Shown: piece after piece, positions 12,001 through 15,000 of the stretch | Numbering within the stretch: position 1 is the stretch's first letter | Layout: every line of letters starts with the position of its first letter | Source: a virus | Lineage: Duplodnaviria; Heunggongvirae; Uroviricota; Caudoviricetes | Reading direction: 5' to 3' (one strand) | Length of the DNA: 26,413 nt | Virus record (IMG/VR): IMGVR_UViG_2778261064_000014 | Program-made: the position numbers

Positions 12001-15000
12001 TGGAGCCAGCTCCAGCAATGCAGGGACATCCCTGATCGTTGGCTCAACATGAGATTTCATGAAATCTTCTGCCGCAGAATCTGTTGGCTGAAAAAGCAGA
12101 CTGTTACGGGATTTATGCTCAATAAAATAAGCCTCCACCCCCAACAGCATTTTAGTGTAACCAACGCGCGCCGATTTAATCAGATTAACGGTGCGGATCC
12201 GGTCATTTCCCATGCTGTTCATAATGGCAACCTGAAACGGCAGGGTTTCCCATTGTCCGGGAGTGTATGAAGATTCTTTCGGCAGATAATAATGTTGATC
12301 AGCCCACTGAACCGTCGTCAGTGGAACCGGAATATTGAGAGATAAAAGCCCTGTAGCTATCGCACCGGCTGCATTAGCTGCCTTCTGTGCGTCTGAAATC
12401 ATCAATCCACCTGCCCACGTTTTCACCGGCTTTAGCTGCAACATTGGAGGCTTTCGCGATTTCAGTTTTCACCACATCAAGGTGTGACGGTGAAATATCC
12501 GGATATTTACGCTGTAATGTCAGCGGCACACGTACAAGTATCCCCGAAATCTCCTGTGCCACACGTTGCAGAATGAAGGTAAACAATTCCGTTTCCAGCA
12601 CCAGCCCTTCTTCACGGGCATTTTTCATCTCCTGTGCGTCAGCCTGTGCTTTGGTGAGCCGGTAGCGTTCATAGTCAATGGTGCCGGGTTGTAAATCTGA
12701 TTCTGCAGCCGCACGCAAATCTTCCAGTTCTTTGCGGAGCTTTTCGTTTTCGATATCTTTTTCCCGCTGCGCATACCACTCAATGGCTTCTGCAGTATTG
12801 AACATGGCCTCGATACCTTTGCCTCCCCCCGACAAAACTCTCAGCCCCTGACTTTGCCAGCCAGTGATTGTTCTGACATCGCGCTCAAAAATCTCTGCCA
12901 GTTTCTTTTTGTTAACCTTCACGGCACATATTCCTCACAAAAAGAAGAAAGGATCTCAAAACGCTTTTTTCAGCGAAAAATCACCGCTGCCAGATCCTTT
13001 CTTTTTTTAATAAAGCCCTATTAAACAACAGGTTATCCAGAAGAAGAACGGATCTGCTTTTTCCCTGAAAATTTTCATAAATAGCGCGTTTTTGCGCGTC
13101 TGCCGTCCCCCGGTGTTTCAGGTTATGGAAAGGACCCGCGGAAATAGGAGCAATTATCATTTACGCACACTCTAATACCTGCATTATCGCAGCCCCTCAC
13201 CATAAAGGGCTGCTGTAATGCCCGTTACTCAGTAACGACCGCGCCTTTCGGTAATTCCATACCAGCAAATACCGGACAACCAGGATGACGAACATCTTCT
13301 GTTGCTTCCAGCATTGACTCACCAAACCACTCCGTCATGGCGCGACCATCAGCTGCTTTGTAGTGGATCAAGTACTGGTTTTCGCCATCCGCATACTGCG
13401 CGCGGGCTTTAACCTCACCCCATTCATCACTGATGCGCATCTCCACCAGTTGAGACAACTCAAACTTGAACGGAGCAGCATCAGCACCAATTACAATCGG
13501 TTTATTTTCTGTTTTTTCCATCATCGTCTCCCGATATCAAAGCCCGTCGCCGCACCGGGCACTGATCAACATTTGAGTATTCGCGGCGACAGAAAGAATT
13601 TATTTTATTGAGCAGCTACAAACACAGAATTTCATGCTTTCCGGACGCTGACGCATCCTTCATTTTTCAGCAAAATATTCTGCTCCTACAGGCGATCAGT
13701 TCTGCATACACTGTCGGACACTGTCGACAATTTCACAGACCAGAGAAACTGTATCGAAAATCTGGCGCGCCTTATCCAGGCTGACGCATCCCGCCAATAA
13801 AAAAGGCACCAGTATCGCCACCAGTGCCCATTTCGCCGCCGTTCGCAGCATTCTGTGTGTCCAGTGTTTTCGCGTCATATCACCACCAACGCCCGGCCCA
13901 AATCAGAACAGCGACCGCCACAAGGCGGATTGCAAAGGCCGTTGCCCGAATAAAATCAGCACTCATCTGTTTAAATAAATTGTTGTGTATGCAACCAGTG
14001 CAGTACAAATAATCCATGCAACTGGCGTCAGTATATGTCTGATGCCCCGGCATACCGCGATGATTTTTGCGGCATCATCAGCCCCCTGCGGGGTGGTTTC
14101 TGCTTTTATCATCAGATCATCTCCAAATTTATCTTTCGTCGTGTTAGGCTTTACTGGCATGAATGATCCCCATGCGCATTCACAAAATGAATCCATAAAC
14201 ACAAAGCCCCGATTGCTCCAACAACCGGGGTTTTGCTTTACTTATCGTTTCAACTGAAAGTGAGGCCCGTCCTTCAACGTTTTCCAGTCCCCGCCCCATT
14301 CGATGGGGGTATTCAGCTCTTTCGCTGCCTGCTTAAATGCCTGCGCGATTTTCTCGTACAGAGGCCAGTCCCATGACACCTGGCTGCCAACCCAGGCAAC
14401 AACATCCACCGCATCACCGGTCAGGTGGCGGCTGTTCATGGTCTGGCTCTTGCCTTCTGCAACCAGTTGTTTCTGGCGTTCTTTCGTGCGCAGACCTTCC
14501 GTAATACCGAAATCAACCTCCGTCAGCTCCAGCGCACGGCGAACGACAGCAACCAGCTGTGGTTTTACGCCCTCCAGATTTTTCTCGCTCCGACGGCTGA
14601 ATCTGAATTTACCCGACATACTCACCTCCGTAATGAAAGGATTTTTGAAACGTTCCCACGTGCACGAATCACCAGCACGCAGAACAGCAGATTAAGCCCC
14701 ACCGCCAGCCAGTTCGCCGCTAACGGACGACCACACAGATAGCTGAGTGGCGCAAAGGCATAAAGCAGCATCAGCAGCCAGGCCAGCCATGACATCAGCG
14801 GTTTATGTCTGGAATCACAGCGACGATAAAAAAAGAGCGTCAGCACGATAACCGTGCATAACGCCACATTCAGCAATCCGGGAAGGTTACTTAACATTGC
14901 CGCCTCCTCCACCCCGCAGGCGGGAGAACAGGCCGGACACCAGTGATGCGATATCCTGCTGGTGGATGAACGACAGAATCTTCACCGACACCACGGATAC

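Follow-up and report, generated by a model that had tools for sequence, protein, structure and literature searches.

A lambda-type cos site with a divergent predicted cohesive end upstream of the terminase genes of an Escherichia coli prophage

The cos site of phage lambda is the textbook model for genome recognition and cutting by a viral terminase. This report concerns a cos site of the same family in a 26,413-nt stretch of virus DNA (Caudoviricetes; IMG/VR record IMGVR_UViG_2778261064_000014), which is called the window throughout. By the accepted rule, such sites have a fixed left half of the sticky end and fixed CG flanks, and only bp 7-12 drift. Feiss et al. 2015 (PMC4669245) state that selection acts on cosQ, on the CG flanks and on the left half but not on bp 7-12; lambda-class sites in our panels agree with this, as does the cosN survey of Vahanian et al. 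2017 (Virology 509:140) as summarised in PMC9303873. The class of cosN to which the window belongs breaks the rule.

Lambda has cosQ, cosN, a 20-mer, R3, I1, an inverted R2 and R1 in the same order and at the same bp positions as the window, in which the counterpart of I1 is putative. Bp 23-42 and 57-69 are identical, and in both the Nu1 and gpA genes follow directly. Lambda differs from the window in its overhang (GGGCGGCGACCT versus the predicted GGACGGCAGACG) and left flank (CG versus GG), in R3 bp 55-56 (TT versus GA), and in the recognition helix of the small terminase subunit, TerS (RTIQNWQEQ versus RTITGWQSQ; 52% identity overall); the spacer between cosQ and cosN is 1 bp shorter in the window. 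Phage 21 has the closest characterised terminase to that of the window and the same cos layout; unlike the window, it carries lambda's cohesive end, R sites of type TGTCGGTACTTC and the helix RTIERWQSQ. The Salmonella prophage Gifsy-1, whose large terminase subunit (TerL) is 83% identical to the window's, shares the R type AGATCCGTTCTTC, the R2 sequence AAGAAAGGATCTG and a helix of the type RT[V/I]T[A/G]WQSQ. In contrast to the window, it has the canonical left half ACG^GGGCGG (the caret marks a nick), the overhang GGGCGGCAGCGT and a cosQ spacer of lambda length. Only one phage-database record, that of the E. coli prophage SerU-LTIIb (KU052038), spans all of the cos region, with 91.6% identity over 262 nt. 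SerU-LTIIb shares the flanks, cosB and cosN class of the window, but has a predicted core of GGTCTGGGGACG, a truncated terS, and LT-IIb toxin genes directly upstream of cos.

The window contains a complete lambda-type cos on the minus strand (13137-12923), directly upstream of a Nu1/gpA terminase gene pair. Elements are numbered as lambda bp, with minus-strand position 13108 taken as bp 1. The packaging-termination element, cosQ, is an exact GGGTCCT (13131-13137, minus strand); the same 7 bp are annotated as cosQ in phage 21 and are present at the lambda right end. It lies a short distance upstream of cosN but outside the interval 12923-13120, to which the first-pass annotation had assigned the site and which does hold the other cos elements. 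The gap between cosQ and predicted bp 1 is 22 nt, versus 23 nt in lambda and phage 21. This spacer terminates in GAAACACC-GGG, in which GAAACACC (bp -10 to -3; 13112-13119, minus strand) is a conserved, class-specific left flank of cosN. The predicted cohesive end is the G/C-rich 5'-GGACGGCAGACG-3' (13097-13108, minus strand), with flanks GGG^ and ^CGC at the predicted nicks. Reading on along the minus strand, CGCAAAAACG separates this overhang from the 20-mer CGCTATTTATGAAAATTTTC (13067-13086), which occupies bp 23-42 in both the window and lambda. The 20-mer overlaps bp 31-41, which in phage 21 are annotated as binding integration host factor (IHF), and has a single match in the window, where 0 are expected by chance. 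A lambda-type cos upstream of Nu1 that shares this exact 20-mer was what the first-pass annotation had proposed, and all the strings that it quoted are present on the minus strand.

The cosB region follows. TCCGTTCTTCTTC, which contains CGTTCTTCTTC, lies at 13052 to 13040 on the minus strand and corresponds to bp 57-69 in the window and in lambda. R3, AGCAGATCCGTTCTTC (bp 51-66; 13043-13058, minus strand), is a predicted TerS-binding site of the Gifsy-1 type. An I1-like putative IHF site, AAACAACAGGTTA (bp 73-86; 13023-13036, plus strand), lies within an A/T-rich segment, at the same place as the I1 annotated in phage 21 (bp 74-86). It has one mismatch to WATCAANNNNTTR, a consensus whose matches in the window (24, with 24.6 expected) are not above chance. 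R2 (bp 103-118; 12991-13006, plus strand) is inverted relative to R3 and to R1 (bp 152-167; 12942-12957, minus strand); the phage 21 counterparts of R2 and R1 are at bp 107-122 and bp 150-166. The repeat GATCCKTTCTTCTT occurs at 13054 to 13041 (minus strand), 12993-13006 (plus strand) and 12955 to 12942 (minus strand), and nowhere else in the window; this count of three compares with 0.28 expected and was reached in one of 100 shuffles. These are the three repeats, one of them inverted, that had been likened to the lambda R sites, and they lie upstream of terS in the arrangement of R3, R2 and R1. terS itself starts at bp 187 (bp 189 in phage 21, bp 191 in lambda); its GTG start at 12922 is preceded by a GAGGAA Shine-Dalgarno sequence. 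A 59-amino-acid open reading frame (ORF) at 12981-13160 (minus strand) runs over cosN, the 20-mer and R3. It has no Pfam match, its homologue in KU052038 is labelled 'NU1-like protein', and it is probably a mis-annotation overlying the cos site.

The first reading had also held that the cosN core is diverged from that of lambda. This is the case: the predicted overhang GGACGGCAGACG has mismatches to GGGCGGCGACCT at bp 3, 8, 9, 10 and 12, and flank position -2 differs as well. The right CG flank and G1G2 are retained; the published requirement for CG on both sides and a fixed left half (GGGC.., bp 1-6) is broken by the GG left flank and by A at bp 3. Bp 1 is placed at 13108 because this gives the 20-mer (bp 23-42) and the R3 core (bp 57-69) the coordinates that they have in lambda. 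Alignment to lambda cos had been suggested as a check; a MAFFT alignment with circularised lambda, phage 21, Gifsy-1 and SerU-LTIIb gives the same register, with the elements at lambda positions. The core 13-mer originally picked out, GGGGACGGCAGAC, is present at 13110 to 13098 but is 2 nt out of register, since it takes in two flank bases and misses the last base of the predicted overhang. By architecture and proteins, the predicted site belongs to the lambda cos family, but it breaks the published sub-rule for cosN.

Related loci, about 250 across all panels, fall into two cosN classes. The panels include a pattern scan of IMG/VR with cosN left free (GGGTCCTTTC...TTATGAAAATTTT; 120 sites), a scan specific to the window flanks (43 loci) and a panel picked by TerL protein similarity alone (80 loci). 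The majority of the 120 sites have lambda's end and about 12 have other right-half variants; a minority have a 1-nt-shorter spacer, like the window. Across the 53 unique sites of the lambda class there is essentially no change in ACG^GGGCGG, and variation is found at bp 7-12, in the cosQ-cosN spacer and at the positions corresponding to GAAACACC. In the window class (27 unique sites), GAAACACC, G1G2, A10C11G12 and CGCAAAAA, which begins with CGC directly after the second predicted nick, are conserved; bp 3-9 and flank position -2 (G/A/C) vary. At least 18 different ends occur in this class, which was found in more than 40 contigs; GGTCATAGCACG is among the natural cores other than GGACGGCAGACG and that of lambda. 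In the TerL-selected panel, the 19 loci with a TerL 95-100% identical to that of the window (18 of them at 98% or more) bear nine cores. The stretch from cosQ through cosN to R3 is identical to the window's in one IMG/VR contig (L150/L169) and in E. coli 08-00022. On this comparison, the divergent predicted end is not a one-off but an allele within a cosN class in which bp 3-9 vary.

Identical cores are paired with different cosB/TerS types, and one cosB type is paired with different cores; this mixing implies recombination between cosN and cosB. In vB_EcoM-705R4 and Enterobacter mori (6410-6500), a cosN of the window class accompanies an unrelated TerS and a TerL that is just 44% identical. 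Here the cosQ-cosN cores are GGTCGGTAGACG and GGTCTGCAGACG, and an unrelated small terminase gene lies approximately 50-60 nt downstream, without an R3-I1-R2-R1 array; the layout resembles the 'simple' cosB of N15. A scan of species-representative genomes matched only E. mori and three metagenome-assembled genomes, a yield in line with the approximately nine matches estimated for the pattern by chance. No isolated phage or paper with such ends was found in searches of the phage collection and the full-text literature, in which Vahanian et al. 2017 is represented by the papers citing it. Six overhang strings, searched in full text, matched nothing but unrelated primers or barcodes.

Several genomes and contigs carry more than one such site. 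IMG genome 2671180460 has two prophages (L188 and L154/L213) with related gpA-type terminases, one with a lambda-class cosN and the other with a variable core. The two prophages of IMG genome 2778261085 (L036 and L196) have the overhangs GGGCGGCAGACG and GGGCGGCAGCGG; the GGGCGG left half is kept in both. In some IMG/VR contigs (L083, L020, L127, L128, L155), two cos-like sites lie within a few kb of each other, some with further cores such as GGTACGGATACG. The pair in L083 is inverted, about 900 bp apart (9602-9671, plus strand; 10555-10624, minus strand). These paired sites are possibly tandem or nested elements, or satellites.

R3 and the TerS N-terminus could be paired at 180 loci. Over these loci, R3 and the recognition helix co-vary in three clean classes: lambda (R3 GTTTCCGTTCTTC, helix RTIQNWQEQ), phage 21 (TGTCGGTACTTC, RTIERWQSQ) and Gifsy-1 (AGATCCGTTCTTC, RT(I/V)T(A/G/S)WQSQ). 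The Gifsy-1 pairing is present at more than 45 loci, including Gifsy-1, the window and relatives of the window. TerS residues 20 and 24 have been tied to packaging discrimination by the Feiss laboratory (PMC4669245, PMC9026076). Lambda specificity combines R3 bp 55-63 TTTCCGTTC with Q20/E24, and phage 21 specificity combines TGTCGGTACTTC with E20/S24; the window has GATCCGTTC with T20/S24, and its R sites are of the GATCC type. The earlier claim that terminase-binding elements are conserved therefore holds for the architecture and for R3 bp 57-69, but fails at R3 bp 55-56 and at TerS residues 20 and 24. The cosB architecture is lambda-conserved, while the predicted specificity class is Gifsy-1-like. 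Gifsy-1-type cosB is a class defined by sequence.

A correlate of cosN class is found in TerL. The candidate determinant is residues 553-597 (10654-10788, minus strand; 652-amino-acid ORF numbering, approximately lambda gpA 538-582), which contain most of the differences between the window's TerL and the closest lambda-class TerL (96% identical). Residues 566-577 read IFSEEEARQIVA in 29 of 29 variable-core loci, and (V/T)EA(K/Q)QL occurs in this region in all 46 lambda-class loci as well as in lambda and phage 21; 86 pattern-derived loci agree with the association. In a variable-core group with 92% overall TerL identity, differences are mainly in the N-terminal 150 residues and residues 351-600 are identical. 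This suggests that the TerL nuclease domain is coupled to cosN class, although the association may reflect a single evolutionary event. A three-residue motif (E570/R573/I575) was considered as the class determinant. It is perfect in the close panel, but vB_EcoM-705R4 has lambda-like residues (STTEAKQL) with a window-class cosN, and the motif is left as a weak candidate. A TerL sequence search against solved structures gave no match.

Nucleotide diversity (pi) was computed in the TerL-selected panel, with 288 fourfold-degenerate terL sites as a neutral proxy. Pi is 0.49 at cosN bp 3-9, 0.24 in the cosQ-cosN spacer, 0.046 in the 32 nt to the right of cosN and 0.12 at the fourfold sites (maximum 0.32 in a 7-site window). 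Over all terL sites it is 0.038, which shows purifying selection on TerL. The GAAACACC flank, at 0.035, stands out from the adjoining spacer. Strong mosaicism marks the DNA to the left of cos, and the cores may have been brought in with much older left-hand segments; between one contig (L168) and the window, divergence is 8.8% upstream of cos and 0.17% downstream, with two core differences. Accelerated evolution of the core is favoured by the raw pi values, but is not claimed here, because mosaicism left of cos confounds the neutral baseline. The safest reading is that core variability reflects absent constraint plus mosaicism.

The window probably holds a working cos site of a lambda-like prophage, at which terminase would make nicks 12 bp apart to leave the 12-nt 5' overhang 5'-GGACGGCAGACG-3', and which would belong to a class with no fixed sequence need at bp 3-9. 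Homology, element positions, the co-variation of TerS with R3 and the conservation pattern are the basis for this, and from them we infer cleavage, the exact nicks and the reason for the variability. TerS dimers would bind R3, R2 and R1, aided by an IHF bend at I1, and bound TerS would place the gpA-type TerL for two cosN nicks 12 bp apart; cosQ would serve to end packaging when the next cos on the concatemer is reached. In place of bp 3-9, the conserved sequences would be GAAACACC-G(G/A)G on the outside, G1G2, and A10C11G12 with CGCAAAAA directly after it, which would leave the middle of the sticky end free to drift and to be reshuffled by recombination at cos. The GAAACACC flank, beside the top-strand nick, would be the obvious candidate to replace the left-half contacts of lambda. 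In published work, the placing of the nicks depends on the TerS-R3 anchor and on spacing, and the TerL nuclease is not highly sequence-specific (PMC4669245, PMC9026076); both fit a class in which the sticky-end interior is unread. More tentatively, this may be a distinct cosN class in which recognition has moved from the GGGCGG left half to the outside flanks (GAAACACC and ACG^CGCAAAAA), freeing bp 3-9. In that case, the 18 or more 'private' ends, on near-identical terminases, may act as a compatibility barrier among lambdoid phages in one host or mark a mutational hotspot specific to the ends, and the TerL 553-597 changes (E570, R573 and I575 versus T/V, K/Q and L) may be the protein side.

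Some points weigh against a working site of this kind. The virion ends given for the class are predicted ones, and a phage-collection search with two cos variants found it only in prophage-derived records (SerU-LTIIb and vB_EcoM-705R4). The site has a GG left flank where CG is 'highly conserved', and A at bp 3; changes in the left half of lambda cosN, for instance G2C, drop the yield approximately 10-fold (PMC4669245). The spacing between cosQ and cosN is 1 bp below that of lambda. In addition, a run of five Gs makes the top-strand nick ambiguous by 1-2 nt. The window sequence is compatible with nicks 2 bp further left in the same functional cos, CG^GGGGACGGCAGA^CG, which would give the overhang 5'-GGGGACGGCAGA-3' (13110 to 13099) and restore the 5'-CG...CG-3' flanks called highly conserved by Feiss et al. 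(PMC4669245). This register is unlikely: it would add 2 bp to the cosN-R3 spacing, which is critical in lambda (PMC9026076), and would put the G/A/C-variable base at position 1 of the overhang. In the lambda register, by comparison, CG^GGGCGG is found in relatives that share the flanks, and only in that register is there G2:C11 and T3:A10 symmetry across the class, as read directly from the sequences.

The departure of the cosN left half from a consensus that matters in lambda (PMC4669245) would also be expected of a decayed cos in a defective prophage, inactivated and left uncut, and the relative SerU-LTIIb does have a truncated terS with a tail-fibre gene directly after it. Decay is nevertheless very improbable, since G1G2, ACG^CGC and the flanks are conserved over the more than 40 contigs of the class, the terminase, portal and head ORFs of the window are intact, TerL is under purifying selection, and the occurrence of the same cores with different cosB/TerS types implies transfer of functional modules. 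Least probable of all is a different type of end (10-nt 3' overhangs or headful cuts) with a merely ancestral likeness to lambda cos, for which there is no specific support. All cos subsites are at lambda coordinates, TerL has about 85% amino-acid identity to TerLs whose loci bear lambda's own end (TerL-selected panel), and the terL gene has 83% nucleotide identity to gene 2 of phage 21, which makes lambda-type 12-nt 5' ends. It is doubtful that something beyond simple drift drives the variable block at bp 3-9, whether selection for 'private' sticky ends, which would make lambdoid prophages in one host incompatible, or more frequent mutation of the single-stranded overhangs. Such a process would fit a core pi above that of the neighbouring spacer and of every 7-site window of fourfold terL sites, as well as pairs of loci that differ by 1.3-1.7% over 1200 bp downstream but at 4 of 12 core positions. 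Both cosN classes can co-occur in a single genome, and a 2-bp end mismatch lowers yield approximately fourfold and persists through replication (PMC4669245). However, the argument concerns seven sites only, mosaic left-hand DNA could have delivered the cores, and the lambda class is similarly variable at its unread bp 7-12.

The terminase genes next to cos are intact, as is a lambda-family portal gene downstream of terL; Phage_Nu1, GpA_ATPase, GpA_nuclease and Phage_portal_2 were matched. terS (12374-12922, minus strand; GTG start) encodes a 182-amino-acid small terminase of the Nu1 family (PF07471, E = 1.5e-83) with the helix RTITGWQSQ. The protein is 87% identical to phage 21 gp1 and 77% identical to the Gifsy-1 TerS; over terS-terL, nucleotide identity to phage 21 is about 83%. 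terL (10486-12444, minus strand) encodes a gpA-family large terminase with ATPase and endonuclease domains (PF05876, 7.9e-55; PF20454, 2.8e-68). Its 652-amino-acid first-ATG ORF is probably too long, with the true start approximately 14 codons downstream: close relatives stop at codon 10 of the extension, and the Prokaryotic Genome Annotation Pipeline (PGAP) starts the orthologue there, at 638 amino acids.

The window is an E. coli prophage whose head and packaging module is of the lambda type and whose lysis region is like that of phiP27. The best genome match to the cos region is E. coli 08-00022 (99.2% over 361 nt; cosQ, cosN and the three R sites identical). Its prophage (a 27362-nt region), whose ORF series is the same as that of the window and is intact there, combines lambdoid genes for immunity, replication and lysis with a full lambda-like head set and with P2/Mu-like baseplate, tail and tail-fibre genes. 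The lysis region is approximately 92% identical to that of the Stx2e phage phiP27. Judged by these similarities, the prophage is a hybrid of modules. The 08-00022 prophage also bears the paa adhesin and hokD. In E. coli E423, E9 and bR_120_Kylling, the match to window positions 12900-13260 is in two pieces over 511 bp instead of 361 bp, which implies that approximately 150 bp are inserted somewhere in this part of the cos region. Upstream of the lysis genes (17939-18185, minus strand) is a cluster of three tRNA genes, Arg(tct), Arg(tcg) and Met(cat); lambdoid late regions of the Stx-like kind typically have tRNA genes in this position. In KU052038, positions 233-1382 hold the genes for LT-IIb enterotoxin A and B, and the window counterpart (13225-13524) is an unrelated 99-amino-acid hypothetical ORF. 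The last slot before cos appears to be an insertion site for cargo genes ('morons').

Correct orientation and closure of genomes in this group of prophages require the predicted end sequence. With many alleles on a near-constant terminase, the class is a natural experiment on the contacts at the top-strand nick and on the mismatches tolerated in end-joining. It could also show whether sticky-end diversity isolates co-resident prophages, including the toxin-carrying LT-II phages.

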